64,000 nt of DNA, taken from the NCBI RefSeq assembly GCF_028368995.1, contig NZ_JAQNDL010000002.1, positions 545,724 through 609,723 of the forward strand. The letters run 5' to 3'. The notes beneath the pieces are model-generated. The model did not search any database. It saw only the letters and a list, made by a program, of their open reading frames with translations, and was not told the DNA's origin. Below are positions 8,337 through 64,000 of the stretch, piece after piece. This stretch comes from Nannocystis bainbridge (lineage in GTDB: Bacteria; Myxococcota_A; Polyangia; Nannocystales; Nannocystaceae). A program made the position numbers and the translations under genes. Position 1 is the first letter of the stretch; each line of letters begins with the position of its first letter.

Positions 8337-8362
8337 CGCGACCTCTCGGATGGCCTGGCAGA

Positions 8363-27800: not shown

Positions 27801-27902
27801 GAGGTGCGGCGGGAGTGATGGAGGAGGGGGCGGGAGCGGGGGAGCGGCGGCGGGGACGATGCCCGCGGGCGTGTCGGCGGTGGGCGGAGCGTCGGGGGCT
27901 GC

Positions 27903-28060
27903 GCTGTCGGACATGTCTTCGGGGACATGTTCGGAGGGGCCGGTGGGTGTGGTGGTCGTTTCGGACATGTCTTCGGGGACATGTACGGAAGGACCGGTCG
28001 GTGCGGCGGACTTGGCGGACATGTCTGGGGAGACATGTGCGGAGGGACCGGTGGGCTGCC
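27903..28060 (+). repeat. ~54-bp tandem repeat x3, each unit carrying a double hairpin GGACATGTCTTCGGGGACATGTWCGG
   Basis: tcggacatgtcttcggggacatgttcgg... / tcggacatgtcttcggggacatgtacgg... / ggacatgtctggggagacatgtgcgg. It lies between the divergent PAP2 gene (-) and the gene starting near 28370 (+). Confidence 0.85.
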
Positions 28061-28369
28061 AGGCGCCGAGTGACTCGCGAGTCGGGGCCAGCGCGGTCCG
28101 GGCGGGGACGAGCGGGTGGGCGGCGGCCGGCGAGGCGGTCAAGACCACGAGCAGGGCGGAGAGCAGGCGGCGCGGCATCGCGGGTCGGCCGAGTATGCCC
28201 GGTCGCGGCGGGACCGGGCAGCCGCGAGATGGTCTTCGGGACAGGTGAACCCATGCGGTCCGCGGCGAGGAGTGGCGGCTCGGGGGATTCGCGGGCGAAG
28301 CACGATGTTTGCGTCGATCGCGCGCGGCTGGCGGCGGGCGCACGCGTCGCGGTAGATTGCGTCTCTGGC

Positions 28370-33123: not shown

Positions 33124-33135
33124 GACAGGTGACAC

Positions 33136-41317: not shown

Positions 41318-41695
41318 GGCGCGACGATACCGCAGAACGCGGGGGCGGGGCCTGTCCGGCGGACGCGAGCGTGGGCGCGCAGACGGGCGCGGCGCGGCCG
41401 ACGAGGCGGCGGGCTGGTCGAGCGCGGCAGATGTCGCGTGCGCGAGGTCCGGGATCGACCACGGCGAGGCAAGGTGACGAGATCGTCAGGATGCAGCGAC
41501 GCGGGGAGATGGCTCGGTGAGGTGCAGTCGCGGTCGGTCGAGTCGCCGGCGCATGATGTCGAGTACGCGAGCACGGGCCAGGCCGAGGCGGTGAACGAGC
41601 AGGGACGAGGGAGTGCATGCGTCCGCGCGACCGGCAGACCCGCATGGGCTTCACGGGCCCCGCTCCCGGGTGCGCGGGCCATCGGGTCGCTGTCG

Positions 41696-48982: not shown

Positions 48983-49508
48983 CGCCCGTTACGCTAGTCT
49001 TTTCGCGCTGCTGCTGCAACGAAGGGACAAAATGCCGCGCGCGGCCCGAGGTCCGCGCGGGCAGGGTGAGGGCCTGCCGTGGCGGAGGCTGTTCAGCGCC
49101 GCGCGCGCCGTCGCGGACGCCGTTCGCCGCCAGTGAGGCCCGAGCAAGACGGCGTGCAGCGGTTCGGCTGCCGATGACCGCGCCGACGTCGACGCTCGAG
49201 ATGGCGCCGCGGATGAAAGTCGACTTGTCGTCAGCCAAGAAGCGACAAAGGCGAGCGATGTCGTCAGGCTCCCCCGCGCGGACGACCGGGTGTGATCGAT
49301 CAGCGACTGACAGTCCTTCTCGGGGATGCTCTCGTCCGGTGGCGGATGTGCCAGCGGCGGACGTCCCGGCAGTCACCTGTCCGGACCTCAGTCCGCTCGC
49401 TGGGGCGGGTCAGATCTGCGAGGCGGCCGGCGAGCCCCTCGACGAGGGACGCGACGCCGGCCTCGCCGCCGAGCAATGCTCGTGCACCTGCTTCGAGCGG
49501 CTGCTCGC

Positions 49509-50780
49509 TCAGCGACGGCGCGCCTGGATCGCATCGAGCGCGGCGTGTTCGTACGCGCGACCGGAGGCGGCGGCGGCGGCGTCGCCCTCGGCGAGCACGA
49601 GCGAGCCGTCGGCGAGGGCGCGGAGGATCGTGTGCGCGGGGGCGGCGATGACGTGAGCGTCCTGGGAATCGGTGGGGAGCGCGACGAACCGAACTTCGAG
49701 ATCGAGGGCCTCGCACAGAGTGTTGAGCAGGCCGATCACGGCGGGCACGTCGAGCCAGTCCGACCGGTCGCCGGCGACGATCTCGAATGTGCAGTCGGGC
49801 AGGAACGCTCGCAGGCGATAGGCGTCGCGCAGCTGATCGGGATCCGCGTCGTCGTCGTCGTCGTCGTCGTCCGACTCGACATGGGAGACCTCTTCGAACA
49901 AGACTTCGTCGAGCGCCGGCGCGACGAGGTCGGCGAGCCGGCGCAGCAGGTGATCGTGGCGGTTGGGCCAGGCGTCGGTCTCGGTGTCGAAGACGAGACC
50001 CTGGCCGATGGGCACGCCGGAGTCACTCGGAGGCGGCGCGTCGTAATCGTCGTCGTCCGCGCCGCTCGCGGGCGGCGCGGTGTGTCTCGCCAGCGCGTCG
50101 AGCAGGCACCGGCGGTTGTCGTCGTCACGCACGACCTCGAGCATCGCCTGCAGCTCGGCGGTGACGGCGGGGCGCGCCAGCCGGCCGAGCGCGCGGGCGG
50201 CGGCCGCCAGCGCGGGGTTCCAGTCGCCGGGGAGGGCCGCGTTTGCGACTGCGATCATGCGGGCGAGCGGGAGGCGCTCCAGCGAGCGCTGCGAGCCGCC
50301 GAAGTAAGCGGCGCAGGTCGGGTCGTCGACGAGCCGTGACGCGAACAGGGCGTCGAGGGTGGGTTCCGGCGGGATCCGCGGCTCGCTCGCGATGGCCTTT
50401 GCGAGGCCCGTGCGTACGCCGGGGGGAATTCCGTCGTCCGCGAGGCAGCGCGCGAGCCAGGCGGAGAGCGGGGCGAGCAGAGGCGGCTCGCGCAGGAGCT
50501 CGGCGACGATCGAACCGTACACATACCCGACGTCGCGCGCCTCGTCGGGCGCGACGGTGACGAGGGCGCGCACGAGGTCGTCGAGCGCACCGAGGTCGCC
50601 GCGGCGGATCCGGTGGGCGAGCAGACCGGTCGGTGCGTGCTGCGACGAATACGAGTCGAGCGCGGCGTGAGTGGTGGCGAGTTCCAGGTCGAGCCGCGGG
50701 GCCCGTCCCGGGGTCGGCTGGACTTCGAGGTACAGGAACGGGGAATCGTGCTCGCGGCGGATCGGGGTCGGCTCGTCCAC
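49509..50780 (-). CDS. hypothetical protein (423 aa) with poly-Asp tract
   Basis: Natural composition. The D8 run is encoded by a (GTC)8 repeat on the forward strand near 49845-49870. Confidence 0.6.
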   Translation of the reverse strand: MDEPTPIRREHDSPFLYLEVQPTPGRAPRLDLELATTHAALDSYSSQHAPTGLLAHRIRRGDLGALDDLVRALVTVAPDEARDVGYVYGSIVAELLREPPLLAPLSAWLARCLADDGIPPGVRTGLAKAIASEPRIPPEPTLDALFASRLVDDPTCAAYFGGSQRSLERLPLARMIAVANAALPGDWNPALAAAARALGRLARPAVTAELQAMLEVVRDDDNRRCLLDALARHTAPPASGADDDDYDAPPPSDSGVPIGQGLVFDTETDAWPNRHDHLLRRLADLVAPALDEVLFEEVSHVESDDDDDDDDADPDQLRDAYRLRAFLPDCTFEIVAGDRSDWLDVPAVIGLLNTLCEALDLEVRFVALPTDSQDAHVIAAPAHTILRALADGSLVLAEGDAAAAASGRAYEHAALDAIQARRR

Positions 50781-50894
50781 GGACCGAGGGTACTGCGATC
50801 CGCGGATTGTGCGAAGGCGCCCGGGGTCACGAATCGCGCCGGCATTGCATTGGTGCGCTGACGCGTCCGCCGGCTTGTGGCACCCTCATCGAGG

Positions 50895-51602
50895 ATGCGG
50901 CGGCGATGGGTCCACCTCTCGAGGTGCGCGACGATCCTCGCCGGCTGCGGTGCGTGCACGCGGCCGACCGTGAGCCGTCCGCCCGTGGTCGCGTCGGAGA
51001 GCCGCCCGATCGAGCCGCGCGTCGATGTCGACGACGTGAACGCTGATGGCGCCGCGGCTGCCGAAGCAGAGCCGGAGCGTCACGGCAAGGTCGTGAGGTT
51101 GGACCCACCCGAGCCGCCCGCGCGCGACGAGTACGACGTCTGGGGCGACGTCGAAGGCACGCCGGTCGGCGAGGTCTACGGCGCCGGCGGGCTCGGCTGC
51201 CCTCGCGGAGTCGAGCCGTCGCCTCCCTCTTCGACGCGGCACGGTCGTCGGCCCGTCGCGCGCTTGCGGTCGCTCGAGGCCGAGGGCGCACTGTCCCACG
51301 GCGCGGCCTCGTCGAGCTTCCGCGGGCGCGCCGACAGCCTCCGCGATTGTCAACTCGCGGCCATGGAGGAGCAGCCGGAGCTCGCCGGACGGCTGCGCTT
51401 GCGAATCGACATCGGCGCCGACGGACGCGTGCTCACGGCCGCGAGCGACGGGCTCGATGCGATCGCCGGCTGCGTCCGCGAGGTCGCGCTGCGCTGGCGG
51501 TTCGCACCGGCGGACGCGGGCTCGCGGATCGCCGCAGAGTTCGACCTGCGCACCGAACCCGCCGCGCCCGAGCGTCCGCGACCGCCTTCCTGTCGGAGGT
51601 GA
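50895..51602 (+). CDS. lipoprotein with TonB C-terminal-like domain
   Basis: Lipobox ILAGCGAC. C-terminal LRLRIDIGADGRVLTAASDGLDAIAGCVREVALRWRFAPA fits a TonB-C fold. Confidence 0.6.
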   Translation: MRRRWVHLSRCATILAGCGACTRPTVSRPPVVASESRPIEPRVDVDDVNADGAAAAEAEPERHGKVVRLDPPEPPARDEYDVWGDVEGTPVGEVYGAGGLGCPRGVEPSPPSSTRHGRRPVARLRSLEAEGALSHGAASSSFRGRADSLRDCQLAAMEEQPELAGRLRLRIDIGADGRVLTAASDGLDAIAGCVREVALRWRFAPADAGSRIAAEFDLRTEPAAPERPRPPSCRR

Positions 51603-51832
51603 TGCGCTCCGTCCGCCGCTCGTCGCGCCCCGCCGAGCCGGCCCCGCGCGATCACCAGAGCCCCACGGGGATAGCCCCACCGCGCCCGGGCTGCATGCCC
51701 GCGCCGCGGACGCGAGGTGGGCAGGCGGGCTTTGGGTGGCCGCCTGCGAGCGCAGCCCCGCGCAACCTCACGCTCTCGGGCTGGCCTTTGGTGCAGGCGA
51801 CCCTCGCGGCCTCTCGGTACGCTCGCCGCCCC

Positions 51833-52612
51833 ATGACAAGCACCAATTCACCGCGGATCGCCATCGTCACCGGCGGCGGCAACGGCATCGGCCGGGCCAC
51901 TGCCCTCATGCTCGCCGAGGCCGGCTATGCCGTCGCCGTGTGGGACCTGGCCGAACAGGCAACCGAGGAGGTCGTCTCCGCGATCACGGCCGCGGGCGGC
52001 GTCGCCATCGCGCGCAAGGTCGACGTCAGCAAGCCGGAGGACTGCGCCGCCGGGGCCGCCGCGGTGGTCGAGCGGTTCGGCCGGATCGACGTCCTGATCA
52101 ACAACGCCGGCGTCGTGCGCGACGGCCAGCTGGTCAAGGTCAAGGACGGCCAGGTCGTCGGCCAGATGAGCGCCGAGCAATTCCAGTTCGTCCTCGATGT
52201 CTGCCTCAAGGGCGTGTTCAACTGCACCCAGGCGGTCGTGCCGACGATGATCGCGCAGAAGTACGGCCGGATTGTGAGCACCAGCTCGGTGGTGGCGCTG
52301 TACGGCAACTTCGGCCAGACCAACTACGTCGCGGCCAAGGCCGGCGTGATCGGCATGACGCGCGTGTGGGCGCGCGAGCTCGGCCGCTACGGCATCACCG
52401 CCAACGCGATCGCGCCGGGTTTCATCGCTACGGCGATGGTGCAGAGCATGCCGGAGAAGGTCCTGCAGTCGATGATCGACCACACCCCGGTCGGCCGCGC
52501 GGGTCAGCCGGACGACATCGCCCGGGCCTTCGCCTTCCTCGCCGACGAGAAGTCGAGCTTCATCAACGGCGCGGTCCTCAGCGTCGACGGCGGCTCGGTC
52601 CTCGGGACCTGA
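51833..52612 (+). CDS. SDR-family oxidoreductase, 3-oxoacyl-ACP reductase (FabG)-like
   Basis: IVTGGGNGIGRA, NNAG, YVAAKAG and PGFIATAM. Confidence 0.85.
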   Translation: MTSTNSPRIAIVTGGGNGIGRATALMLAEAGYAVAVWDLAEQATEEVVSAITAAGGVAIARKVDVSKPEDCAAGAAAVVERFGRIDVLINNAGVVRDGQLVKVKDGQVVGQMSAEQFQFVLDVCLKGVFNCTQAVVPTMIAQKYGRIVSTSSVVALYGNFGQTNYVAAKAGVIGMTRVWARELGRYGITANAIAPGFIATAMVQSMPEKVLQSMIDHTPVGRAGQPDDIARAFAFLADEKSSFINGAVLSVDGGSVLGT

Positions 52613-53339
52613 GCGCGCCCGTCGAGGACGCCGGCGCGCCGTCGATGCGATGGCGCGCGGCGCTGCGGGGTGTCGCTCGCCCCGCGCTGAGCCGCACGAG
52701 GGATCGTTCCGGTTCACGCGGGCTGCGAACTCAAGGCGGTGTCGAGGCCGGCCCACAACTGTACGGCGCGCGGCGAGGGCAGGCCGAGCGCGACGAGCTT
52801 TGCCTGCTCCGATGCTTCGGCGGCGGTCCGCCGCACGGTAGCGACCGCGAGCCGGCCGGTGAAGTCGAGCTGTCCGATGAGCCAGGCGTCGAACATTCGC
52901 GGGCGAGCTCGCAGATCAGCGCATTCCGTAAACGACACTGCCGGTGGTGCTGCCGCCGGCAGACACGGAATCACCAGAGTCTGTGGTCGTGGCGCCCATG
53001 ACGGTGGAATCCATGGTGCCCGAATCGGTGGAGGTGCTCGTGTTCGCGGTGGGGGAATCCGTGGTGTCGAATCGGTAGAGGTGCTCGTCCGGGGCAGGCG
53101 TGCGCGCGGAAGCCCGAGGGCACCCGACCTCGATTCGTCGCGCAAGCGAGCTGCCAGGGCAAGTCCGAGCAAAAAATCGTGACGAGCATGGCGAGAGCAT
53201 GGCCGCGCGGAGCGGGCTGTCAGGTTGCCGGGAAGGGTCGGGTAAGGGCGCCGGTGAGCCCTCGCCAGGGTCGCGGAGAATGAGGGCTCGGATCCGCTGC
53301 GCTGGTCTTCGCAGACAAATCGGATTATCGTGCGAGGCG

Positions 53340-53516
53340 ATGGCATTTCCGACCGCAGTCAACGCTCAGATCACCGACGAACTCGTTCAGACGGCCCTCC
53401 GCGCGGGCGTCGAGCAAGACACCGCCCGCAAAGTCGTCGAGTCGATCCTCGATCACCTGGCGAGCCGGGACGTCCTGCTCAGGGAAGGCAGCCCCACGCC
53501 TCAGGCCGCGGATTAG
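53340..53516 (+). CDS. possible small protein (58 aa)
   Basis: MAFPTAVNAQITDELVQTALRAGVEQDTARKVVESILDHLASRDVLL lies 115 bp upstream of the secreted-protein gene. Support is weak. Confidence 0.25.
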   Translation: MAFPTAVNAQITDELVQTALRAGVEQDTARKVVESILDHLASRDVLLREGSPTPQAAD

Positions 53517-53629
53517 CGCATGAAGGCGCCGAGCAGGCGCGAGCGACCGAACGCCCGGCCTGCGGGCCGGGCGGTCCTGAGCGCGGATGGACCAGCCGCG
53601 GCCGACGCGGGCGTGATAGAGGTGAGAAA

Positions 53630-55054
53630 ATGCCTCGACTGTTTGCGCCCGCCCTGGTGATCGCGTCGTGTCTGTTCTCGAGTCCCGCCTGGGCCGTGCA
53701 GACCGACACCGAATTGGTCTGTCTACTGGTCGGAAAGGACTATCACAACGGGACCGATCCGACGTCGGCGCATCAGCCGGACCTGCGGCTGTTCGGCACC
53801 GACCTCGGGTTCTCGTTCCGCCACGACGACAGCGTGGTGATGCTGTTCGGCGACACGTGGATCGAGGAGGACTTCATTTGCGAGCCGCCGAGCTTCACCG
53901 ACGATTCGCTGGCGTTCATCGACCTCGCGGAGGACGACGACCCGGAGGATTGCCTCGACCTGGTGTTCCCGACCGACCTCGCCGACGTGCCGCTGCCGAT
54001 CGAGGTGTGGCAGTCGGGCGTGCTGCAGAACATGGGGCCGCTGCGCACGCCGCTGACGGGCTTCAGCGATGGGCGCCAACTATACGGGATGTTCACCGGC
54101 GACGCGCAGACGTGCCTGGCGGCGCCGGTGTGCCCGGAGGGCCTGACCTGCGTGGGCGGTCTGTGCGGCGACGCGACGAGCTCGCAGGCGGGGTTCGGGA
54201 CGCTGGCGTTTCGCGTCAAGATCGCGTCGGCGACATCGTCGAACCCGACGGTGTTCAACGTCGGCCACGAGTGGCCGACCAACAAGTTCGTCAACCCGAC
54301 CAGCCGCGCGATCGGGGCGCTCGACGAGCGAGATCCGGACAACAACGACTACGAGCCCGGCGAGGAGCCGGACGAGCTGCTGGTGTGGGGGCGACCGGGG
54401 TTCGCGGCCGCGGGCACGGGCACGGCGGATCTTTACCTGCTGCATCACCCGCTGAGCACGCTGAACGGGCCGGGCACGACCATCAATTGGACGCCGCGTT
54501 ACTTCGCGGGGATGAGCGGGTCGGTGCCGACGTGGTCGTCGACGCAGACGGACGCGGTGCCGGTGATCGCGCTGGAGGATGTCGATCCGGTGCTTCACTC
54601 GTCGGTGGCGTATGTGCCGGCGATCCAGAAGTGGGTGCTGCTTTACAGCGGGCGGTGGCCGGGCACGGCGTCGACGCCGACGACGGGGGTGTACATGCGC
54701 ACGGCGCCGCACCCGTGGGGTCCGTGGAGCGAGGCGGACCTGATCTGGCACGCGGTCGACGACGGGGCCTACGATTGCCCGGGCGGGTTCATGTACGACG
54801 AAGAGAGCGTCGGGATGTCCTGCACGCCGACCGATCCGTATCGACCGGGTGCGTTCGAAGCGTGCCCCGCGGAGTCGGCGGATCCGAACGGGGACCTCGG
54901 GGTCGAGTACGGGATCAACATCCTCGACACGTTCACCGCGAGCGGCATGGCCATCGACACGGCGACGATCTACTGGAACCTCTCGACGTGGAACCCGTAC
55001 CGCGTGGTGCTGATGAAGACGGACCTCGACGACAGCGTGATCATCCCGCCGTGA
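53630..55054 (+). CDS. secreted hypothetical protein (475 aa)
   Basis: Signal MPRLFAPALVIASCLFSSPAWA, VMLFGDTWIEEDF, and several Cys pairs. GC is slightly below the window average. Confidence 0.7.
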   Translation: MPRLFAPALVIASCLFSSPAWAVQTDTELVCLLVGKDYHNGTDPTSAHQPDLRLFGTDLGFSFRHDDSVVMLFGDTWIEEDFICEPPSFTDDSLAFIDLAEDDDPEDCLDLVFPTDLADVPLPIEVWQSGVLQNMGPLRTPLTGFSDGRQLYGMFTGDAQTCLAAPVCPEGLTCVGGLCGDATSSQAGFGTLAFRVKIASATSSNPTVFNVGHEWPTNKFVNPTSRAIGALDERDPDNNDYEPGEEPDELLVWGRPGFAAAGTGTADLYLLHHPLSTLNGPGTTINWTPRYFAGMSGSVPTWSSTQTDAVPVIALEDVDPVLHSSVAYVPAIQKWVLLYSGRWPGTASTPTTGVYMRTAPHPWGPWSEADLIWHAVDDGAYDCPGGFMYDEESVGMSCTPTDPYRPGAFEACPAESADPNGDLGVEYGINILDTFTASGMAIDTATIYWNLSTWNPYRVVLMKTDLDDSVIIPP

Positions 55055-55147
55055 GCCGGCGAGCGCGGTGAGCCTTTCGCGGCGACTGCGAAAAAAAATC
55101 GAAGAATTTTGGATCGGGCGGGCGGCCAGCTCACCTATCCCCTTTGC

Positions 55148-55759
55148 ATGAAGACCATCCTGACCGCCTCGCTCTTCGCTGCGTCCCTGGCCTACGGCCA
55201 GCTCCCGGGGCGTGATTCCGACCTGGGCCCGGAGCGCGACGCCGGGTCCGAAGCGCGCCTCCACGCTCCGGAGCCCGCCAGGGCGTCCGCGGAGGCGCCG
55301 CAGGGGAACCAACCCGGCAGCCTCTGCATCATGCCGGGGGTATCCGCGAGCGTGGCGAAGGCCAACCCGGGCACCCAGTACCCTCTGGGCGGAATGAGAC
55401 CGCCCGCCGTGTCATGCCACGACAACAAGGGCAAGCACGCCGTCGGGTACCACTTCAAGCTCTACGTCGGCCCGGGCACCGACTGGCCCGACGCCGTCTG
55501 CAGAGTCGACTACCTCCACAAGCCCGAGGAGCTCACGAGCGCGTGCTGGAACGCCTGCATCGAGCAGAAGAAAGCTTGTTACGCGAAGTTCAGCGGCAAA
55601 AAGGGCAAGCAGCAATGCGATGAGCAACTCATTGCATGCAAGGCCGTCAACGACTCGAAGAAGCACCCGGCCATCCTTCAAGAGCGTTCGAACAGTTTCT
55701 GCAAGCAGCCGGCGCCACCATTCCCGCAGCCGCCGGCGCTCACGGTGACCCCGCCGTAG
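55148..55759 (+). CDS. small secreted Cys/Lys-rich protein in a low-GC segment
   Basis: Signal MKTILTASLFAASLAYGQ, 8 Cys, and a K-rich C-terminal half. A/T-ending codons (aaa, caa, tgt, ttc) are atypical for this genome. An AT-rich leader gcgaaaaaaaatcgaagaattttgg precedes it. Confidence 0.65.
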   Translation: MKTILTASLFAASLAYGQLPGRDSDLGPERDAGSEARLHAPEPARASAEAPQGNQPGSLCIMPGVSASVAKANPGTQYPLGGMRPPAVSCHDNKGKHAVGYHFKLYVGPGTDWPDAVCRVDYLHKPEELTSACWNACIEQKKACYAKFSGKKGKQQCDEQLIACKAVNDSKKHPAILQERSNSFCKQPAPPFPQPPALTVTPP

Positions 55760-56133
55760 AAGCGCGGCCGGGATTTTCGCGCCGCGCTCTGGCCCTGCGG
55801 GTGTGTCGACGCGGCCGACCGCTCGAGCGCGGCCGGCGGCGACGCAGTCCTCGACCTCGCGCGCGATGGCGCTGCCGCCCGCGGCGGTGATCGCGGACAC
55901 GAAGTCCGGGGCTGCCTGTTCGGCCAGGTCTCGTGACGATGGCGATCCGCGGCCGCTCGCTGTCGTCATGGCGAGGCACCGAGAGGCCGCAGGACCCGCC
56001 GCAATACCAAAAGGGGCGAAGATGTGAGCTTGCGCCCTGTCCGTGGCCTGGAGCACGCGGCTCGGGTGGCCACGGAGGACGATGACTGCTGCTTGTCGTC
56101 TCCAGGGCGTTCCCCGTAGGATGCGCCGACCCC

Positions 56134-56421
56134 ATGACAGATGCCGCCCCGCCCGACGCGCTGGTCCGCGAGATCAAGGAGCTCATCATCGAGGCCCTGA
56201 TGCTGCAGGACATGACCCCCGAGGACATCGACCCCGAGGCGCCGCTGCTGGTCGAGGGGCTGGGTCTGGACTCGATCGACGTGCTCGAGCTGGCGATGGC
56301 GATCGGCAAGAAGTACGGCGTCAAGACCCGGGCCGATGACGCGCAGAACCGGCACATCTTCGCCAGCGTGACCAACCTGGCCCGCTTCGTCCAAGAACAG
56401 CGCGCTGCGGCGGCGGGCTGA
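56134..56421 (+). CDS. acyl carrier protein
   Basis: Phosphopantetheine attachment motif LGLDSIDVLEL. 95 aa, acidic. Confidence 0.85.
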   Translation: MTDAAPPDALVREIKELIIEALMLQDMTPEDIDPEAPLLVEGLGLDSIDVLELAMAIGKKYGVKTRADDAQNRHIFASVTNLARFVQEQRAAAAG

Positions 56422-56429
56422 GGCCGGGC

Positions 56430-57080
56430 ATGGCGGACCCTGGTGGCGAGCCGCGGCGAGCCGCGGGGGTCCCGAGGTGGATTCCGGCGGTGCTGCGATC
56501 GATCGTGATCGGCGGCTATCCGCTGGTGGTCTACTTCGGCATGACGCGCTGGAACCCGCGCACGCTGGCGCTGGTGCTCGCGGTCGCGCTGCTGCCGGGG
56601 CTGGTGCTGCGCCTGCGCGAGGCCCGGCGCGAGGACCTGTGGCCGGTGCTGCGGGTGCCGCTGTCGCTGTTCGGGCTGTTCGCCGTGGCGGCGCTGTCGG
56701 GCGAGCAGCGGCTGTTCATGGCCCTGCCGGTGCTGGTCAACCTCGGGCTGCTCGCCAACTTCGCGGCCAGCCTGCGGGGGCCGGTGTCGCTGGTCGAACG
56801 GTTCGCGCGCCTGCAGGAGCCCGAGCTGCCGCCGGGCGGGCCGGCGTACTGCCGCACCTGGACCAAGATCTGGTGCGGGTTCTTCGTCGCCAACGCGGCG
56901 GTCAGCGCCGGCCTGGCGCTGTGGGCCCCGGCGTCGTGGTGGATGCTCTACACCGGGCTTTTGGGGTACCTGCTGATCGGGGTAATGTTCACCGTCGAGT
57001 TCATCGTCCGCAAAGTGACGTTCCGTCGCTTCGGCGACGGGCTGCCCGACCGCCTGCTCCGCCGCTTGCTCCGCGCATGA
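56430..57080 (+). CDS. integral membrane protein (cluster-associated, unknown function)
   Basis: Five to six TM helices. Its stop overlaps the next start (ATGA). Confidence 0.65.
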   Translation: MADPGGEPRRAAGVPRWIPAVLRSIVIGGYPLVVYFGMTRWNPRTLALVLAVALLPGLVLRLREARREDLWPVLRVPLSLFGLFAVAALSGEQRLFMALPVLVNLGLLANFAASLRGPVSLVERFARLQEPELPPGGPAYCRTWTKIWCGFFVANAAVSAGLALWAPASWWMLYTGLLGYLLIGVMFTVEFIVRKVTFRRFGDGLPDRLLRRLLRA

Positions 57081-58999
57081 GGTCCTTCGTCCCGCTCGTC
57101 CACACCGATCCCGCGGCGCCGGTCGCCGTGGGCGAGGCCGTGCGCACGGCGGGCGAGCTGATGCGCGACGCGCGAGCGGTGGCTGCCAGGCTGCCGGCGG
57201 CGACCGCGGGCAGCGAGGTGCTGGTGGTCTGCGGCGATCGCTACCACCTGGCAGTGACGACCCTGGCGGCGTGGCTGCGCGGCCACGCGGTCGCGCTGCC
57301 GCCCAACGCCCAGCCGGCGGCGGTGCGCGCGCTGGCCGGGCGAGCCTCGGTGGTCGCGCTGCTGCACGACTCGGACCTGGCTGACGCGCAGGACGTCCGC
57401 GAGTGGCTCCCGGAGCATGTCCCCGGGGACATGACCGATCCGACATGGCCCGAAGCGCTGGCGGCGGACCGCCGGCTGGCGGTGGTGTACACCTCGGGCA
57501 GCACCGGCGACCACCAGCCGTGCGTCAAGACGGCGGCGCAGCTGCTCGGCGAGGCGCAGACGCTGGCGGCCACGTTCGCGCTGCGGGCCGGCGAGGTGGC
57601 GCTGGCGACGGTGCCGCCGTATCACCTGTACGGGCTGCTGTTCGGGATCCTGGCGCCGCTGGCCGCCGGGGCGGCGTTCGCCCGCGAGACGCCGCTGCAC
57701 GCCGAGACGGTGGCCCACGTGGCGCGTCAGGTGGCGGCGACGGTGCTGGTCAGCACGCCGGCGCACCTGCGCGGGCTGACGGTGCTGCAGCGCGGCGACC
57801 TGCCGCCGCTGTCGCGGGTGTTCTCGTCGGGCGCGCCGCTGCCGCGGGCGACCGCGGACGAGCTGTTGACGGGGCTCGGGCTGCAGGTGACCGAGGTGTA
57901 CGGCTCGTCCGAGACCGGCGGGATCGGCTGGCGTCGGCACGAGGATGTCTCGGGGGACATGTCCCCGGAGACAGCCTGGGCGCCGCTGCCGGGGGTCGCG
58001 GCCGAGGTAGCGAGCGACGGGCGGCTGCTGCTGCGCTCGCCGTTCCTGGCCCCGGACGCGCCGGTGCCGTACCCGTGCGAGGACCGGATCGAGCTCGACG
58101 CGCGCGGCGGGTTCCACCTGCGCGGGCGGCTCGACGGGGTGGTGAAGATCGCCGGCAAGCGGGTGGCGGTCGCCGAGGTCGAGCAGCGGCTGCTGGCGCT
58201 GACGGCGGTGGCCGACGCGGCGGTGGTGGCGGTCGAGTCGCCGGGGGCCCGCGGGCACGAGCTGGTGGCCGCGATCGTGGGCCGCGAGGCCGGGCGCGAC
58301 GCCGGCGAGCTGGTCGCGGAGCTGCGCCGGGCGCTGCTGCCGTGGTTCGACCCGGTGGTGGTGCCGCGGCGGATCAAGGTGGTGCCGGCGCTGCCGCGCG
58401 AGCCGAGCGGGAAGCTGACGCGGCGCAAGCTGCACGCGCTGCTCGGGCTCGACGCGCCAGCGGGCGCGGAGAATGAAGGCACGGCGGCCGGGCGAGGTGG
58501 CGCGAGGGACATGTCCGCGGGGACAGCCAACGAGGCCGCAGGCGGCGTGAAGGACATGTCCTCGGGGACAGCCGCGGCGGGCACGCCGGCGACCGAAGGA
58601 GATGGCGCGAGGGACATGTCCTCCGGGACATCGAGTGAGACCCGCGCGTTCGCGCTGCGCGGGCACGTGCGGCGCGACGACGGCGAGGCTTCGGTGCACG
58701 AGGTCGAGGTCGGGGTGCCGGTCGACCTGGCGTTCTTCCGCGGGCACTTCGAGGGGCGGCCGGTGCTGCCGGGGGTGGCGCAGCTGACGGCGCTGGTGGT
58801 GCCGCAGGTGGCGGCGCTGCGGCCGGAGCTGGGGCGGCTGCGGCGGGCGGCGCGGCTCAAGTTCACCCGGCCGATCGCGCCGGGCGACGCGCTGGTGCTG
58901 CGGCTCGAGGTCCGCGGGACGCAGGTTCGCTTCTCGCTGGCGCGCGCGGGCGAGGTGGTCACGGCGGGCGCGCTCGAGTACGACGCGCGCGGTGGTTGA
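57077..58999 (+). CDS. AMP-dependent synthetase/ligase fused to C-terminal FabZ/FabA-like hotdog dehydratase
   Basis: AMP-binding motif VVYTSGSTGDHQPC and EVYGSSETGG. C-terminal FFRGHFEGRPVLPGVAQLTAL. The interdomain linker carries RDMSAGT/KDMSSGT/RDMSSGT copies of the palindromic element. Confidence 0.8.
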   Translation: MRSFVPLVHTDPAAPVAVGEAVRTAGELMRDARAVAARLPAATAGSEVLVVCGDRYHLAVTTLAAWLRGHAVALPPNAQPAAVRALAGRASVVALLHDSDLADAQDVREWLPEHVPGDMTDPTWPEALAADRRLAVVYTSGSTGDHQPCVKTAAQLLGEAQTLAATFALRAGEVALATVPPYHLYGLLFGILAPLAAGAAFARETPLHAETVAHVARQVAATVLVSTPAHLRGLTVLQRGDLPPLSRVFSSGAPLPRATADELLTGLGLQVTEVYGSSETGGIGWRRHEDVSGDMSPETAWAPLPGVAAEVASDGRLLLRSPFLAPDAPVPYPCEDRIELDARGGFHLRGRLDGVVKIAGKRVAVAEVEQRLLALTAVADAAVVAVESPGARGHELVAAIVGREAGRDAGELVAELRRALLPWFDPVVVPRRIKVVPALPREPSGKLTRRKLHALLGLDAPAGAENEGTAAGRGGARDMSAGTANEAAGGVKDMSSGTAAAGTPATEGDGARDMSSGTSSETRAFALRGHVRRDDGEASVHEVEVGVPVDLAFFRGHFEGRPVLPGVAQLTALVVPQVAALRPELGRLRRAARLKFTRPIAPGDALVLRLEVRGTQVRFSLARAGEVVTAGALEYDARGG

Positions 59000-59027
59000 T
59001 ATGGTCGGAGGGACGGACGAGCGCGAG

Positions 59028-59825
59028 ATGGCCCGAGGGCCAGGTGACGTGTCCGCCGGGACAGCCGCGTTCCGGCCGTGCGCGCTGATCCCGACCTACG
59101 ACAACCCGCGGACGGTGCGCGACGTGGTGCTGCGGGTCAAGGCGCACCTGCCCGCCGTGGTGGTGATCGACGACGGCTCGGGCCCGGAGGGGCGGGCGGC
59201 GGTCGAGGCGATCGGGGCCGAGGGGCTGGCGCACGTGCGCCGGCGGACGCAAAACGGCGGCAAGGGGGCGGCGGTCAAGACCGGGTTCCAGTTCGCCCAC
59301 GAGCTCGGCTACACCCACGCGCTGCAGGTCGACGCCGACGGGCAACATGACCTCGGGGACATCCCGCGCTTCCTCGCGACCGCGCAGGCGCGGCCGGACG
59401 CGCTGGTGCTGGGGGCCCCGGTGTACGACGCCTCGGCGCCGAAGGGCCGGCTCATCGCCCGCAAGATCACCCTGTTCTGGACCGACTTCGAGGCCGGGCG
59501 CGGCGTCATCACCGACCCGATGTGCGGCTTCCGGGTCTACCCGCTGACGCCGGCGCTGGCGCTCGGGCGCACCGGCGACCGCATGGACTTCGACATCGAG
59601 ATCGCGGTGCGGCTGGTGTGGGCCGGGGTGCCGGTGATCAACCTGCCGACGAAGGTCCGCTATATCGGCCGCGACGAGGGCGGGGTGTCGCACTTCCGGG
59701 TGTTCGGCGACAACGTCAAGATCTCGTGGCTGCACACCCGGCTGTCGTTCCAGCGGGTGATGGTGCGCCCGTGGCTCGACCTCTACCGCCGCCTGCGCCG
59801 CCCGGCGCTGCCAGCCGGCCGCTGA
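59028..59825 (+). CDS. family-2 glycosyltransferase
   Basis: CALIPTYDNPRTVRDVVLRV...VVVIDDGSGPEG...QVDADGQHD has the GT2 DxD architecture. Confidence 0.75.
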   Translation: MARGPGDVSAGTAAFRPCALIPTYDNPRTVRDVVLRVKAHLPAVVVIDDGSGPEGRAAVEAIGAEGLAHVRRRTQNGGKGAAVKTGFQFAHELGYTHALQVDADGQHDLGDIPRFLATAQARPDALVLGAPVYDASAPKGRLIARKITLFWTDFEAGRGVITDPMCGFRVYPLTPALALGRTGDRMDFDIEIAVRLVWAGVPVINLPTKVRYIGRDEGGVSHFRVFGDNVKISWLHTRLSFQRVMVRPWLDLYRRLRRPALPAGR

Positions 59826-60083
59826 CCGAGAGGACAGGTTCGATCGGCCATGGCGCAGCAGGCAGGTTTGAAAGGACATGTCCCGGGGGACAGCCGCGAC
59901 GAGGCCGCGAGCGGCGGAGCGGCGGCCGGCGCGGGCGGAGCGAACGGGCGCGGGGCGATGGTCGGCGCGGGCGGCGGGGCAGCGGCCGGTGATGCGAGCG
60001 AGCGCGGGCCGATGGTCGTGGCGAGCGGCGGTGGGGAGAGCCAGGCGGCGGTCGTCGCGGGCGCGGGCGGCGATCGGGCGTGG

Positions 60084-60962
60084 ATGACCCGGCCCGAGCG
60101 CGGGACGGTGCTGGGGATCCGGGCGACGCTGCTGTTCTGCCGGGTGTTCGGGCGCCGCGGGGCGGGGGCGCTGCTGGCGGTGATCACGTTCTACTACGCG
60201 CTGTTCGCCGGGGCCGCGCGCCGGGCCTCGCAGGACTACCTGCGGCGGATCGGCCAGCCGCATGGCTTTTGGGCCAGCTGGCGCCACATCTACACGTTCG
60301 CCCGCTGCGCGCTCGACCGCGTGTTCCTGGTCCGCGGCGAGACCTCGCGGTTCCGCGTGACGCACACGGGCATCGAGCACCTGCGGGCGCTGCAGCAGCA
60401 GGGCAAGGGGGCGCTGCTGCTCGGGGCGCACCTCGGCTCGTTCGAGGCGATGCGGGCCAGCAGCGTCGACAAGCGGCTGCCGATCCACATCCTCGCGTAC
60501 TGGCAGAACGCGAAGATGATCAACGATTTCTTGCGCACCGTCGGGGCCGACTTCGACGTGCGCGTGATCCCGATCGACCCGCGTGACACCAGCTACATCC
60601 TGGCGGCGAAGGAGGCGATCGAGCGGGGCGAGCTGGTGGCCGTGCTCGGCGACCGGGTCGGGGTCAACGACAAGACCTGCACGGCCGACTTCCTGGGCGC
60701 TCCGGCGCGCTTCCCGACCGGGCCGTACACCCTCGCGGCGCTGCTAAAGTGCCCGATTTACTTGACTTTCGGGCTTTACCACGGGCCCGACCGCTACGAT
60801 CTTTATTGCGAGCCCTTCGCCGAACAATTAGAACTGCCCAGAGGCCGCCGCGAGGCCGCCACCGCCGCCCATGTCCAGCGCTACGCCGAACGCCTCGAGC
60901 ACTACTGCCGCCTCGCGCCGCTCAACTGGTTCAACTTCTACGAGTTCTGGAGGGCGGAGTGA
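60084..60962 (+). CDS. LpxL/HtrB-like lipid A biosynthesis (lauroyl) acyltransferase family protein
   Basis: TVLGIRATLLFCRVFGRRGAGALLAVITFYYALF...GALLLGAHLGSFEAM...IHILAYWQNAKMIN. An N-terminal Gly/Ala-rich extension (59850-60083) is probably untranslated. Confidence 0.7.
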   Translation: MTRPERGTVLGIRATLLFCRVFGRRGAGALLAVITFYYALFAGAARRASQDYLRRIGQPHGFWASWRHIYTFARCALDRVFLVRGETSRFRVTHTGIEHLRALQQQGKGALLLGAHLGSFEAMRASSVDKRLPIHILAYWQNAKMINDFLRTVGADFDVRVIPIDPRDTSYILAAKEAIERGELVAVLGDRVGVNDKTCTADFLGAPARFPTGPYTLAALLKCPIYLTFGLYHGPDRYDLYCEPFAEQLELPRGRREAATAAHVQRYAERLEHYCRLAPLNWFNFYEFWRAE

Positions 60963-62488
60963 GTAACGCGCGCGTGCTGCTGGTGGGGCCCGCCGGGCTC
61001 GGCCTCGACGACGTGATCCAGCTGGCCGAAGGGACAGCCTTCCCGGCGCTCGACGACGCGCCGGAGTACCGGGCGCTGTTGGCCCGCGGCGCCGATCACC
61101 TGGCGCGGCGGCTGGCCGCGGGCGAGGTCGTGTACGGGGTCACGACCGGGTTCGGCGACTCGTGCGAGACGGCGGTGCCGGCCGAGCACGTGCCGTCGAT
61201 GCCGGTCAACCTGATGCGCTTCCACGGCTGCGGCACCGGGCGGATCCTCGACGAGGTCGAGGCGGCCGCGGTGGTCGCGGTGCGGCTGGTGGCGCTGGCG
61301 CGCGGCTGGTCGGGCGTGCGGGTCGAGGTGCTCGAGCGGCTGTGCGACTTGCTGAGGCACCGCCTGTTGCCGCGGATCCCCGCCGAGGGCTCGGTCGGGG
61401 CCAGCGGCGACCTGACGCCGCTGTCGTACGTGGTCGCGGCGCTGGTCGGCGAGCGCGAGGTCTGGTTCAAGGGACAGGTGGCGCCGGCGGCCGAGGCCCT
61501 GCGCGCGGCCGGCATCCCGCAGCTGACGCTGCAGCCCAAGGAGAGCCTGGCGCTGATGAACGGGACCAGCGTCATGGTCGGGCTCGGTTGCCTGGCGGTC
61601 GCCCGCGCGCAGCGGCTGGCGCGCCTGTGCGCGGCGCTGACGGCGATGGGCAGCGACGTGCTCGGCGGCAACCCCGCTCACTTCGACGACCGCATCTTCG
61701 CCGCCAAGCCGCACCCGGGCCAGAGAGCCGTGGCGGGGTGGATCCGCGAGGATATCGAGTTCCCGCGGCCCGCAGCCCCCGCGCGCATCCAGGACCGTTA
61801 TTCGATCCGCTGCGCCCCGCACGTGATCGGGGTCCTCGTCGACGCGCTACCCTGGGTCCGGCAGTGGCTCGAGGTCGAGATCGTCGGCGCCAACGACAAC
61901 CCGCTGGTCGACCCGGAGACCGGCGAGGTGCTGCACGGCGGCAACTTCTACGGCGGGCACGCCTGCTTCGCGCTCGACGCCCTGAAGACGGCGGTGGCCA
62001 ACCTCGCCGACCTCGTCGATCGCCAGGTCGCGCTGGTCTGCAACCCCGACACGAACGCGGGCCTGCCGGCCAACCTGGTCGCGCGCACCGGCCCCGATCG
62101 CGCGGCGCATCACGGCTTCAAGGCGATGCAGATCTCGACCTCGGCGCTGGCGGCCGAGGCGTTGAAGCTGACGATGCCGGCCAGCGTCTTCAGCCGCAGC
62201 ACCGAATGCCACAACCAGGACAAGGTGAGCATGGGCACGATCGCGGCGCGCGACTGCCTGCGGATCGTCGAGCTGACCGAGACGGTCGCCGCGATCGGGC
62301 TGCTCACCATGTGCCAGGCGGTCGACCTGCGCTCGGGTCACAACGTGCACGCGCGGGCGCGCACGCTCCACGAGGCGGTCCGCAGGGTGGTGCCGATGGT
62401 CGACGCCGACCGCCGCCAGGACCACGACATCGCCGCGGTGTTGACGCTGATGCGCGCGGGCGCGTTGCCGATCGGAGCGCTGCCGTGA
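60959..62488 (+). CDS. MIO-dependent aromatic amino-acid ammonia-lyase (HAL/PAL/TAL family)
   Basis: MIO motif GSVGASGDLTPLSYVVAALVG, NGTSVMVGLG, and GGNFYGGHACFALD. GTG start overlaps the preceding stop (GTGA). Confidence 0.88.
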   Translation: MSNARVLLVGPAGLGLDDVIQLAEGTAFPALDDAPEYRALLARGADHLARRLAAGEVVYGVTTGFGDSCETAVPAEHVPSMPVNLMRFHGCGTGRILDEVEAAAVVAVRLVALARGWSGVRVEVLERLCDLLRHRLLPRIPAEGSVGASGDLTPLSYVVAALVGEREVWFKGQVAPAAEALRAAGIPQLTLQPKESLALMNGTSVMVGLGCLAVARAQRLARLCAALTAMGSDVLGGNPAHFDDRIFAAKPHPGQRAVAGWIREDIEFPRPAAPARIQDRYSIRCAPHVIGVLVDALPWVRQWLEVEIVGANDNPLVDPETGEVLHGGNFYGGHACFALDALKTAVANLADLVDRQVALVCNPDTNAGLPANLVARTGPDRAAHHGFKAMQISTSALAAEALKLTMPASVFSRSTECHNQDKVSMGTIAARDCLRIVELTETVAAIGLLTMCQAVDLRSGHNVHARARTLHEAVRRVVPMVDADRRQDHDIAAVLTLMRAGALPIGALP

Positions 62489-62889
62489 GCCGCCTTCACG
62501 AGGTCTCGGTCGAGTTCGAGGTCCCGTTCCACGATGTCGACATCCTCAACATCGTCTGGCACGGGCACTACTACAAGTACATGGAGATCGGCCGGACCGC
62601 GCTGATGCGCTCGCGCGGGCTCGACGTCGCCGACATCCGCGGCGCGGGTTACGCCCTGCTGCTGGTCGACAGCCACTGCCGCTACACCTACCCGCTGCGC
62701 TACGCCGACCGCGCCCGCGTCGACGCGTGGTTCGTCGCGGTTGCGCCGCGCCTGGTCGTGGCCTATCGCATCCGCAACCTCAAGGACGACCGCTGCTCGG
62801 CTCGCGGGCAGACGATCCTCGTCACCACCGACCAGGATGGTCGCCTCTTGCAGGAGACGCCCGATGCTCTGCTCCAGCGGCTGGTATAG
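62485..62889 (+). CDS. 4-hydroxybenzoyl-CoA thioesterase-like hotdog thioesterase
   Basis: VSRLHEVSVEFEVPFHDVDILNIVWHGHYYKYMEIGRTALM has the YbgC/4HBT fold signature. GTG start overlaps the ammonia-lyase stop. Confidence 0.7.
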   Translation: MSRLHEVSVEFEVPFHDVDILNIVWHGHYYKYMEIGRTALMRSRGLDVADIRGAGYALLLVDSHCRYTYPLRYADRARVDAWFVAVAPRLVVAYRIRNLKDDRCSARGQTILVTTDQDGRLLQETPDALLQRLV

Positions 62890-62944
62890 CCCACGCTCCC
62901 GTCTGTCCTTCCGGACAGGTCTTTTCAGACATGTCCTCACGGTC

Positions 62945-63637
62945 ATGGCGGTCACGATCGCCGCGGTCGCGCCGCTCGGCCAGGCCCAGGCGGTCGAGCC
63001 GCTGCCGGTGACGGTCGCGGCGCCGCTGGTCACCAGCATCACGCTCGACCAACTGCTGGGCCAGTTCGCCGGCATGAGCGGGCTGCAGGCGACGTTCCGC
63101 GAGGAGAAGCGGATGGCGCTGCTGGCGGCGCCGCTGGTCAACGAGGGCACCATCTATTTCGTGCCGAACGGCAAGAAGCCGCGCCTGGCCCGCCACACGG
63201 CCAAGCCGGCGCGCTCGGTGGTGGTGATCGACGGCTCGGCGCTCAAGCTGGCCGACGACGCCGGCCGCGAGGAGATCGCGCTCGACAAGAGCCCGATGGT
63301 GCGGCTGTTCATCGACTCGTTCATCAAGATCTTCGCCGGCGACCGCGAGGCGCTGACGAACATGTACGCGATGGACCTGCAGGCCGAGGGCCAGCGCTGG
63401 ACGCTGAAGCTGAAGCCGAAGCTGACGCCGCTCGACAAGCTGATCGAGCGGGTCGAGATCGCCGGCGACGGGGTCGTGATCGCGTCGATGCGGGTGGTCG
63501 AGGTCGGCGGCGACGAGGCCGTGACCACGTTCTCGGCCGTCGACGCGACCCGCAAGTTCTCCACCGAGGAGCTGACGGCGCTGTTCAGCCTGCCGCCGAA
63601 GCCGGCCCCGGTCGCGGCCGCGCCGGCGAGCCGCTGA
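62945..63637 (+). CDS. LolA-like outer-membrane lipoprotein carrier family protein
   Basis: MAVTIAAVAPLGQAQA then TFREEKRMALLAAPLVNEGTIYFVPNGKKPRLA...RWTLKLKPK. A hairpin CTGTCC-TTCC-GGACAG sits immediately upstream. Confidence 0.65.
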   Translation: MAVTIAAVAPLGQAQAVEPLPVTVAAPLVTSITLDQLLGQFAGMSGLQATFREEKRMALLAAPLVNEGTIYFVPNGKKPRLARHTAKPARSVVVIDGSALKLADDAGREEIALDKSPMVRLFIDSFIKIFAGDREALTNMYAMDLQAEGQRWTLKLKPKLTPLDKLIERVEIAGDGVVIASMRVVEVGGDEAVTTFSAVDATRKFSTEELTALFSLPPKPAPVAAAPASR

Positions 63638-63658
63638 GGCGGCCTTCCGCACCTGCTC

Positions 63659-64000
63659 CATGGAACCTGCCCGATCAGACAGGCCGAGCGCATGGCGGGC
63701 GGGGATCGGCGCGGCGATCGTCGCCGGGCTGGCGGCGTTCTGCGCCCTGCGCCTGCAGGTGGTCACCGACATCACCGCGTTCATGGCCGACGTCGCCGAC
63801 CCCAAGCTGGCGGCGCTGTCGCGCGGGATGGCCAGCTCGGAGCTGACGCGCACGCTGGTGCTGTCGGTCTCGGACGAGCGCGGCGAGCCGGACGTGGCGA
63901 TCGCCGGGGCGCGGGCGCTGGCCGATCGGCTGCAGAACCGGCCCGAGGTGGCGTGGCTGCGCACGGGGCCGGGCGAGCTGCACGCCGAGGCGATCCACAA
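63659..64000 (+). CDS. MMPL/RND-type exporter, partial (continues beyond window end)
   Basis: MEPARSDRPSAWRAGIGAAIVAGLAAFCALRLQVVTDITAFMADVADPKLAALSRGMASSELTRTLVLSV matches the N-terminus of aryl-polyene-cluster exporters. Confidence 0.65.

Follow-up and report, generated by a model that had tools for sequence, protein, structure and literature searches.

The 64,000-nucleotide (64-kb) stretch of Nannocystis bainbridge DNA studied here, which we call the window, ends in a run of nine genes (positions 56134-64000) resembling one half of an aryl-polyene (APE, gene symbol ape) cluster. Our reading, held at a probability of about two in three, is that these genes are the N. bainbridge copy of the ape lipid operon, in a conserved myxobacterial variant that has the loading, anchoring and export genes and is without the type II polyketide elongation block. 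Among known systems the locus is best filed as a variant of the aryl-polyene lipid cluster that lacks a ketosynthase (KS) and bears a thioesterase and a FabG-like reductase. The operon would most likely assemble and export a cinnamoyl- or coumaroyl-derived glycolipid.

Homology to the E. coli ape cluster

We compared every protein with the experimentally studied ape cluster of E. coli CFT073 (Table 1). The gene order E-G-H/I-J-K-L-M(-N) was the same in the window, with apeN seen in congeners, past the window end. As this order is that of E. coli, the family assignment is right for this half of the cluster. An initial reading made from the letters and their open reading frames (ORFs), the sequence-only reading, had called the region an aryl-polyene-type cluster, and the homology and collinearity with apeE, G, H, I, J, K, L and M bear this out. 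The two systems also share a logic, in which an acyl-ACP synthetase places an aryl acid on a dedicated acyl carrier protein (ACP), and the group is transferred to a lipid by way of a glycosyltransferase/acyltransferase, with LolA-like, MMPL and DUF3261 proteins serving for export (PMC8253772, from which the roles of the Ape proteins in the pathway are taken throughout). More distant myxobacterial relatives hold the same genes beside a full block of KS, chain-length factor (CLF), ApeP, ketoreductase (KR) and a second KS.

Several differences from E. coli were observed. ApeJ is a single protein in E. coli, whereas in Nannocystis it is split into two genes, for a family 2 glycosyltransferase (GT2) and an acyltransferase; apeH and apeI are separate and adjacent in E. 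coli, while in Nannocystis they are fused. An ammonia-lyase gene has been inserted between J and K. Since it lies within the operon, the aryl starter would come from Phe or Tyr, and would not be the chorismate-derived 4-hydroxybenzoate that E. coli uses. The sole reductase is FabG-like, shares 34% identity with E. coli ApeQ, and is located outside the operon, while in E. coli apeN-O-P-Q-R come directly after apeM. When the 64-kb window was searched by tblastn with the E. coli queries, no match was found to ApeA, B, C, D, F, O, P or R. There is thus no ApeD counterpart in the window, and the lipid-attachment role would fall to the two proteins matching the halves of ApeJ. The acyltransferase that had been described as LpxL-like is indeed of the lipid A type, but its counterpart is the C-terminal half of E. 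coli ApeJ and not ApeD. Of the export set, ApeG-, ApeL- and ApeM-like proteins are in the window, and DUF3261 (ApeN) was seen only in congeners.

Ketosynthase genes and selection in related loci

Only the first 113 codons of the MMPL gene fall inside the window, and the view downstream was taken from syntenic loci of relatives. These were N. pusilla (L007, the chromosome assembly GCA_026626665, and L008, a Logan contig encoding an identical ligase), N. exedens (L009 and L010), a 236-kb metagenome contig with a ligase 64% identical to that of the window (L011), a Logan contig with a ligase 70% identical (L012), GCA_030429545 with a ligase 48% identical (L014), a metagenome-assembled genome (MAG) of a Nannocystis sp. 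(L004) and a Nannocystaceae MAG (L005). Two further loci contain KS genes, namely the Deltaproteobacteria MAG nzgw248 (L006) and the Polyangia MAG GCA_036268875 (L015), the latter covering only the part of the operon from the acyltransferase to DUF3261.

The N. exedens and N. pusilla loci align with the window at ~90% DNA identity, and their ligases are 81-86% identical to that of the window. In both species the operon stops after the MMPL and DUF3261 genes, and is followed by unrelated opposite-strand genes for a glutathione S-transferase (GST), a tetratricopeptide-repeat (TPR) protein and hypothetical proteins. The operon likewise ends at DUF3261 in L004, L005, L011, L012 and L014, with flanking genes that differ from locus to locus. 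We observed no KS, CLF or ApeP gene beside the operon in these five or in L007 and L009, the sequence past DUF3261 extending over 1.7-2.5 kb in L007, L009, L011, L012 and L014 and over ~7 kb in L004 and L005; in the latter two, no KS match was found over the ~7 kb. The window itself gave no KS, CLF or ApeP homologue in tblastn searches (E<=1e-3) with queries from L006, L015 and E. coli. KS, CLF and KR genes had been expected just beyond 64 kb; judging from the relatives, the only loci in which this region was seen, the expectation was probably wrong as regards the ketosynthases.

We also looked for such genes more widely. With the APE-type CLF of L006 as query, an insensitive search, no Nannocystis protein was among the 22 homologues, and with the APE-type KS of L006 none was among the best 120 matches, all of at least 53% identity; both absences are suggestive only. 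A downstream continuation of L011 was sought in metagenomes and none was found. In the literature, the term arylpolyene was absent from the text and one supplement of the N. bainbridge description, which includes antiSMASH results for eight Nannocystis genomes. A survey of 46 Myxococcota bins reported aryl polyenes for Polyangiales and Palsa-1104 and did not name its Nannocystales bin. We found no literature description of a Nannocystis aryl polyene or of an ape cluster lacking a KS.

The two KS-containing loci are built differently. In L006 the DUF3261 gene is followed by two CsgG-like genes and then by KS, CLF (PF13723), ApeP, an ApeQ-type KR and a second KS; in L015 the same five genes come after 4.4 kb of other genes. 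Their ACP, fusion, GT2, acyltransferase, lyase, LolA-like, MMPL and DUF3261 genes stand in the window's order, and the L006 proteins are 47-65% identical to those of the window. L006 has no match to the ApeG-like membrane protein, a position that the L015 sequence does not span. The thioesterase of the 4HBT family is present in all of the KS-less loci, the 600-aa protein described below in all except L005, and the FabG-like reductase of the window type, beside the ACP gene and divergent from it, in all except L014 and L005; none of the three has a match in L006 or L015. This anticorrelation of the KS block with the thioesterase, the reductase and the 600-aa protein was seen in ten loci. As the marker genes had matches only among the KS-less loci, there would be two distinct architectures, and the KS-less form appears, from gene content, to be a distinct recurrent module of ~12 genes and not a random truncation.

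These comparisons bear on whether N. bainbridge might simply have a canonical, complete cluster, with KS, CLF, second dehydratase, ApeQ and second KS just past the window, making an ordinary yellow lipid. Such a cluster would fit the collinearity of apeE to apeM with E. coli, where apeN-O-P-Q-R come next, and the KS block found downstream of DUF3261 in L006 and L015. We nevertheless regard it as unlikely, given the opposite-strand GST, TPR and hypothetical genes that follow DUF3261 in N. exedens and N. pusilla, the ~7 kb in L004 and L005 that gave no KS match, and the thioesterase, reductase and 600-aa protein that the KS-less loci share and the KS-containing loci do not match. Some observations do weigh against an operon without an elongation block. 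N. bainbridge itself was seen only as far as the MMPL gene. Five loci reach 1.7-2.5 kb past DUF3261, compared with the 4.4 kb that separates DUF3261 from the KS block in L015, and because of this short reach a KS block displaced by a few kb could still be present in N. exedens, N. pusilla, L011, L012 and L014. The CLF and KS homologue searches were limited and did not cover whole Nannocystis genomes. Finally, there is no ApeP here, though ApeI works with ApeP in E. coli and Xenorhabdus.

The module is maintained by purifying selection. The ratio of nonsynonymous to synonymous substitution rates (dN/dS) was below 1 in all ten module genes compared, at 0.13-0.58 against N. exedens and 0.21-0.70 against L012, and in our judgement these values are if anything inflated, because the extreme G+C content at third codon positions (GC3) limits synonymous change. 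The window, L008, L009/L010, L011, L012 and L014 have every gene intact. The reductase, too, survived a local rearrangement in N. bainbridge as an intact copy. The His motif of the hotdog domain is kept in KS-less and KS-containing members and is lost only in L005.

A functionless remnant, decaying after deletion of the polyketide synthase block from an aryl-polyene cluster, would account for the lack in the window of apeC, apeO, apeP and apeR, which are essential core genes in E. coli (PMC8253772). It would also account for the L005 copy (3400-9700), which looks degenerate: besides the lost His motif, it gave only fragmented matches for the lyase and the thioesterase, and it is without the reductase or the 600-aa gene. 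Frame breaks were further seen in the GT2 and acyltransferase genes of L007 (12020-15423 in GCA_026626665), where the gene call fuses the acyltransferase to the lyase. However, L008, which encodes the identical ligase, has GT2, acyltransferase and lyase intact, and the L007 breaks are probably assembly errors rather than pseudogenes. With intact genes in the other loci, dN/dS well under 1 for every gene, conserved catalytic motifs, and an architecture kept across lineages whose ligases are 48-70% identical and whose flanks differ, we consider decay very improbable.

Gene content, enzymes and neighbouring features

The window has a G+C content of ~72%, at which raw ORF lists are noisy, and GC3 and frame plots were used to pick genes; domain scores were obtained from Pfam and NCBIfam profile searches. 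The GC3 frame plot and ORF calls gave nine co-directional genes on the + strand (Table 1), and seven of nine filter-passing reading frames showed GC3 of 0.86-0.94. The contiguous same-strand genes with overlapping stop-start junctions reported in the sequence-only reading were thus recovered. The junctions read ATGA at 57077 and GTGA at both 60959 and 62485, neighbouring genes overlap by 8 nt at 58992 and by 26 nt at 62864, and the remaining gaps are of 8, 24 and 22 nt. Its list of gene products and their order also held, through Pfam and NCBIfam matches and, for the membrane protein and the MMPL protein, through comparison.

Table 1. Genes of the ape-like module in and around positions 56134-64000 of the window, with profile matches and the corresponding E. 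coli CFT073 proteins
Feature	Position	Strand	Profile match or remark	E. coli counterpart
ACP (ApeE-like)	56134-56421	+	PP-binding 2.5e-9; NF006617 106.6 bits (cutoff 70, passed)	ApeE, 53% identity, 6e-27
ApeG-like integral membrane protein, 216 aa	56430-57080	+	no Pfam match	ApeG, 38% identity, 4.6e-23
Adenylating enzyme + hotdog dehydratase, 640 aa	57077-58999	+	AMP-binding 1.2e-29; AMP-binding_C 2.3e-10; FabA 7.2e-7	N-terminal part: ApeH, 32% identity over 470 aa, 3.9e-42; C-terminal part: ApeI, 36% identity, 3.2e-8
GT2	58992-59825	+	Glycos_transf_2 2.6e-13	ApeJ N-terminal half (residues 2-232), 44% identity, 1.4e-59
Lipid A-type/lysophospholipid acyltransferase	59850-60962	+	Lip_A_acyltrans 5.5e-12	ApeJ C-terminal half (residues 250-550), 35% identity, 4.3e-54
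MIO aromatic amino-acid ammonia-lyase, 509 aa	60959-62488	+	Lyase_aromatic 1.4e-156; ASG motif	
Hotdog (4HBT/YbgC-type) thioesterase, ApeK-like	62485-62889	+	4HBT_2 1.1e-12	ApeK, 33% identity, 8e-26
LolA-like periplasmic lipid carrier, ApeL-like	62864-63637	+	LolA_3 7.3e-11	ApeL, 24% identity, 1.7e-8
MMPL/RND lipid exporter (ApeM-like), first 113 aa	63660-64000	+	cut by window end; no Pfam match of its own	ApeM, 6.6e-42 (N. exedens orthologue)
DUF3261 protein (N. exedens)				ApeN, 2.3e-4
FabG-like 3-oxoacyl-ACP reductase, 259 aa	51833-52612	+	adh_short_C2 7.5e-62	
604-aa conserved protein, family not recognisable	47174-48988	-	kept near the module in six relatives	

Catalytic motifs were intact in the ACP (Ser in GLDSID), the GT2 (DAD) and the acyltransferase (HLGSFE). 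The best NCBIfam model for the GT2 was PpgS, a polyprenyl-phospho-GalNAc synthase (9.2e-16, under the cutoff). The acyltransferase carries a Gly/Ala-rich N-terminal extension, in which GC3 is at least 0.95 over most of the length and dips in the first ~100 nt. The start codon of the LolA-like gene is ambiguous (62864 or 62945). The MMPL fragment shares 94.7% identity with the N-terminal part of the MMPL proteins (794-795 aa) in N. pusilla and N. exedens, both of which carry PF03176, the N. exedens protein also matching the HAE3/HpnN families. A promoter and terminator scan of 55600-56200 gave no matches, and a tandem-repeat scan of 56000-64000 gave only short, low-scoring repeats of no evident significance. 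Among the lyase-containing ape-like loci compared (L006 and L015 against L004, L007, L009, L011, L012 and L014), we noted that those with the KS block gave no match to the ApeK-like thioesterase and that those with the thioesterase showed no KS block; E. coli has both.

The ligase-dehydratase fusion is 100% identical to a N. bainbridge protein and 80-86% identical to proteins of N. pusilla, N. punicea, N. exedens and N. radixulma. It had been taken for an unusual organisation; instead it is common, as AMP-binding and ApeI-like domains occur in one protein in 100 of the 120 best homologues, with examples from Myxococcales, Polyangia, Deltaproteobacteria and Planctomycetes MAGs. The ligase core motifs (TSGSTG, YGSSE, GRLDGVVK, PREPSGK) and the catalytic motif of the hotdog domain, GHFEGRPVLPGV (GHF..P.LPGV motif), are intact, and the fusion scored 27 bits on the ApeI-like NCBIfam model, just below the cutoff of 28.5. 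The linker between the two parts (58400-58560) is of low complexity, with repeated (A/V)(R/K)DMS(A/S)GT motifs, and it is probably mainly through linker length that the proteins of the Nannocystis species differ in size (608-675 aa). We also came across proteins of ~830 aa (L013:10001-12493) in which a ligase domain ~60% identical is joined to an O-methyltransferase instead of the dehydratase. These ligase-O-methyltransferase fusions (P0051) were evaluated as related clusters and rejected, their surroundings being without any ape genes.

The ligase is ApeH-like and probably ACP-loading rather than a CoA ligase. Its best NCBIfam model was a 4-coumarate-CoA ligase, TIGR02372, of the kind linked to photoactive yellow protein (PYP), and some homologue records carry that name, but the score was 141.2 bits against a cutoff of 334.7 and the operon is without a PYP gene; a PYP-type ligase was accordingly rejected. 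The same evidence bears on the notion that the operon has no lipid pathway at all, the lyase and ligase making a 4-coumaroyl thioester for a PYP chromophore, for another polyketide such as phenylnannolone, or for aromatic acid catabolism. Nannocystis phenylnannolones are indeed built from a cinnamate starter (PMC5577590). Feeding data for phenylnannolone, however, point to a route without an ammonia-lyase (PMC5577590), for which reason a link of the operon to phenylnannolone starter supply was also rejected. In addition, translational coupling joins the lyase and ligase to ApeG/J/K/L/M homologues, and a non-lipid function is hardly credible.

The ammonia-lyase contains the ASG motif that forms the 4-methylideneimidazole-5-one (MIO) group, the sequence NLMRFHGCGTG in the switch region (Phe-His at motif 1) and HNQD at motif 2. 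Its nearest solved relatives were the R. sphaeroides tyrosine ammonia-lyase (TAL) entries 2o78/2o6y and tyrosine aminomutases. The histidine ammonia-lyase (HAL) models TIGR01225 and NF006871 were under their cutoffs, as was the best NCBIfam model, the BagA/FevW TAL. The Phe-His pair at motif 1, which was seen in the window, L004, L009, L011, L012, L014 and L015 (Leu-His in L006), is that of neither phenylalanine ammonia-lyase (PAL), TAL nor HAL. At motif 2, Gln marks PAL/TAL and Glu marks HAL (PMC3992019), and with the PAL/TAL-type Gln a cinnamate- or coumarate-type starter is reasonable. The flexirubin TAL, FlxA, itself has a HAL-like motif 1, and specificity is not readable from sequence (PMC3992019). 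The enzyme is thus predicted to be an aromatic amino-acid ammonia-lyase of PAL/TAL type, the choice between Phe and Tyr not being decidable from its residues. The cinnamate/coumarate starter proposed initially therefore stands in kind (HNQD, with the PAL/TAL Gln and not the HAL Glu).

We then considered other pathways with comparable enzymes. In the flexirubin cluster of Chitinophaga/Flavobacterium (FlxA TAL; FlxY, a 4-coumarate-CoA ligase; DarA/DarB), an ammonia-lyase and an adenylating enzyme likewise start an aryl-polyene-type pathway from an aromatic amino acid (PMC3992019), and LolA-like and short-chain dehydrogenase/reductase (SDR) components are shared in kind with Nannocystis. The flexirubin models nevertheless scored far under cutoff here (FlxA 306 against 700, LolA2_flexi 43 against 125, FlxB 189 against 340), and the flexirubin or xanthomonadin membership suggested earlier was not sustained. 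Pfam scans covering most of the larger window proteins, which included no dedicated DarA/DarB search, brought no dialkylresorcinol (DarA/DarB) genes to light. Xanthomonadin is a brominated aryl polyene with a chorismate-derived 3-/4-hydroxybenzoate starter (XanB2); in the window an ammonia-lyase takes the place of the starter-supplying enzyme. The window proteins that were scanned included no halogenase. In L015 (14350-15576) a gene resembling those of flavin-dependent halogenases lies directly after the second KS, which hints at a halogenated aryl polyene there. A beta-oxidative route from cinnamate to a benzoyl thioester is known as well, e.g. for enterocin in Streptomyces maritimus (EncP/EncH/EncI/EncJ). 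The Nannocystis operon and reductase have the same enzyme classes minus the thiolase (PAL, acid-thiol ligase, hydratase/dehydratase, 3-hydroxyacyl dehydrogenase/reductase and thioesterase), a likeness by class only; the Nannocystis carrier, in contrast, is an ACP, and the genes are embedded among lipid-anchoring and export genes.

The reductase passed the cutoff of NF009466 (229.6 bits, cutoff 222) and fell below that of TIGR01830 (266.5 bits, cutoff 297.75). On NF004200 it scored 194 bits, compared with 337 bits for the genuine ApeQ of L015 (cutoff 273), and it is 37% identical to the ApeQ of L006 and of L015. It is 90-92% identical to the N. pusilla and N. exedens reductases, which adjoin the ACP gene divergently. 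From these relationships 51833-52612 appears to be the module's reductase, inverted and displaced in N. bainbridge. Remnants of the ancestral reductase were found at 49163-49332 and 55805-55970, with the intact inverted copy at 51760-52612. By comparison with N. exedens and N. pusilla, a N. bainbridge-specific segment of ~6.5 kb (49333-55804, G+C ~0.68) is inserted at the ancestral position of the reductase; it also holds genes for a DUF4185 protein, an AgmX/PglI-tail protein and hypothetical proteins.

A homologue of the 604-aa protein (the 600-aa protein above) adjoins the KR and ACP genes in L004, L007, L009, L011 and L012, and adjoins the ACP operon in L014, a locus without a KR. Its place in the relatives, next to the reductase and divergently oriented to the ACP operon, ties it to the module. 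Mean column identity was 75% over five aligned sequences and dN/dS was 0.13 against N. exedens. No significant match was found in Pfam, NCBIfam or the PDB; the protein includes a Pro-rich linker, and its C-terminal domain is weakly like DUF2325 (E 0.25). A single-sequence structure model of low confidence (predicted local distance difference test, pLDDT, of 49) was all-helical to residue 500 and ended in a small C-terminal alpha/beta domain. We evaluated the protein as a hidden condensing enzyme and rejected this, as there was no family or PDB match and the low-confidence model was unlike a ketosynthase.

Elsewhere in the window, a single reading frame at 13725-23477 (-) encodes a 3250-aa protein made up mostly of TPR repeats. 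Three further frames of high GC3, at 33133-38478 (+), 39470-41485 (-) and 27803-29689 (+), encode proteins of 1781, 671 and 628 aa without a Pfam match.

Proposed pathway and its meaning

In the pathway that we propose, the MIO ammonia-lyase would deaminate Phe or Tyr to cinnamate or 4-coumarate. The ApeH-like domain would adenylate this aryl acid and load it directly onto the adjacent ApeE-like ACP, as ApeH does in Xenorhabdus and E. coli (PMC8253772). The ApeI-like hotdog domain and the FabG-like reductase may then process beta-hydroxy and beta-keto intermediates on the ACP, and the ApeK-like thioesterase may proofread or release the acyl chain. The GT2 and the acyltransferase would make a lipid anchor of the sugar-phosphate kind and link the aryl-acyl group to it; this anchor-building role is suggested because the GT2 is PpgS-like and the anchor of the Xenorhabdus aryl-polyene lipid is GalNAc-phosphate-glycerol (bioRxiv 10.1101/2020.12.19.423268). 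By homology, the ApeG-like protein, the LolA-like carrier, the MMPL pump and DUF3261/ApeN would move the lipid to the outer membrane.

A ketosynthase for such processing was found neither in the window nor beside the operon in any of the close relatives inspected. That both a 3-oxoacyl-ACP reductase and a dehydratase are retained suggests beta-keto intermediates, which would need a ketosynthase encoded elsewhere. Most likely such an enzyme, e.g. from fatty-acid synthesis, would carry out a few or several rounds of elongation; that there is no extension at all is nearly as likely. As for the dehydratase, ApeI and ApeP reportedly act as a heterocomplex (Grammbitter et al. 2019).

Without extension, the lyase product itself, as a cinnamoyl, 4-coumaroyl or 3-hydroxy-/3-oxo-3-arylpropanoyl group, would be put on the sugar-phosphate glycerolipid anchor, and export would take it to the outer membrane. 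The hotdog domain and the reductase may hydrate and oxidise the enoyl-ACP, as happens in beta-oxidative cinnamate processing, or may be dispensable; the thioesterase would gate release, and the product would be a UV-absorbing aryl lipid and not a polyene pigment. As a complete account of the locus we hold this as a tentative possibility. It agrees with the finding of no KS, CLF or ApeP at eight related loci or in the 64-kb window, with the coincidence between loss of the KS block and presence of the thioesterase and a non-ApeQ reductase, and with the lack of a Nannocystis protein among the matches listed for the APE-type CLF and KS queries. The purifying selection on the module argues that it works without a linked KS, and the N. 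bainbridge description and the Myxococcota bin survey lend weak support. On the other hand, the reductase and the dehydratase with its catalytic His motif are most simply explained by ongoing condensation cycles, the loci and the window show the absence of a linked KS and not of one in the whole genome, and it is speculation that FabZ-like and FabG-like enzymes would run in reverse on cinnamoyl-ACP.

An ape lipid operon without its elongation block, as we prefer to read the locus, matters in the first place for how such systems are found. Aryl-polyene clusters have been described as the family with the widest spread among bacterial biosynthetic gene clusters, and mining tools recognise them through their ketosynthases. 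A conserved, selected variant with no linked ketosynthase would escape KS-based genome mining. If the pathway proves to be independent of a KS, its products would be short aryl-acyl outer-membrane lipids of a class not described before, which KS-based mining rules would miss, and the interest rises if Nannocystis genomes prove to be without any APE-type ketosynthase. The gene set alone does not predict a pigment, and caution is needed on this point.

Either the anchoring and export machinery is a separable module that would serve a shorter aryl acyl group, or the polyene synthase would be supplied in trans. Either outcome would inform the lipid-attachment half of the pathway, which is still poorly understood, and the locus would offer a natural 'minimal' system for the functions of ApeG, J, K, L, M and N.

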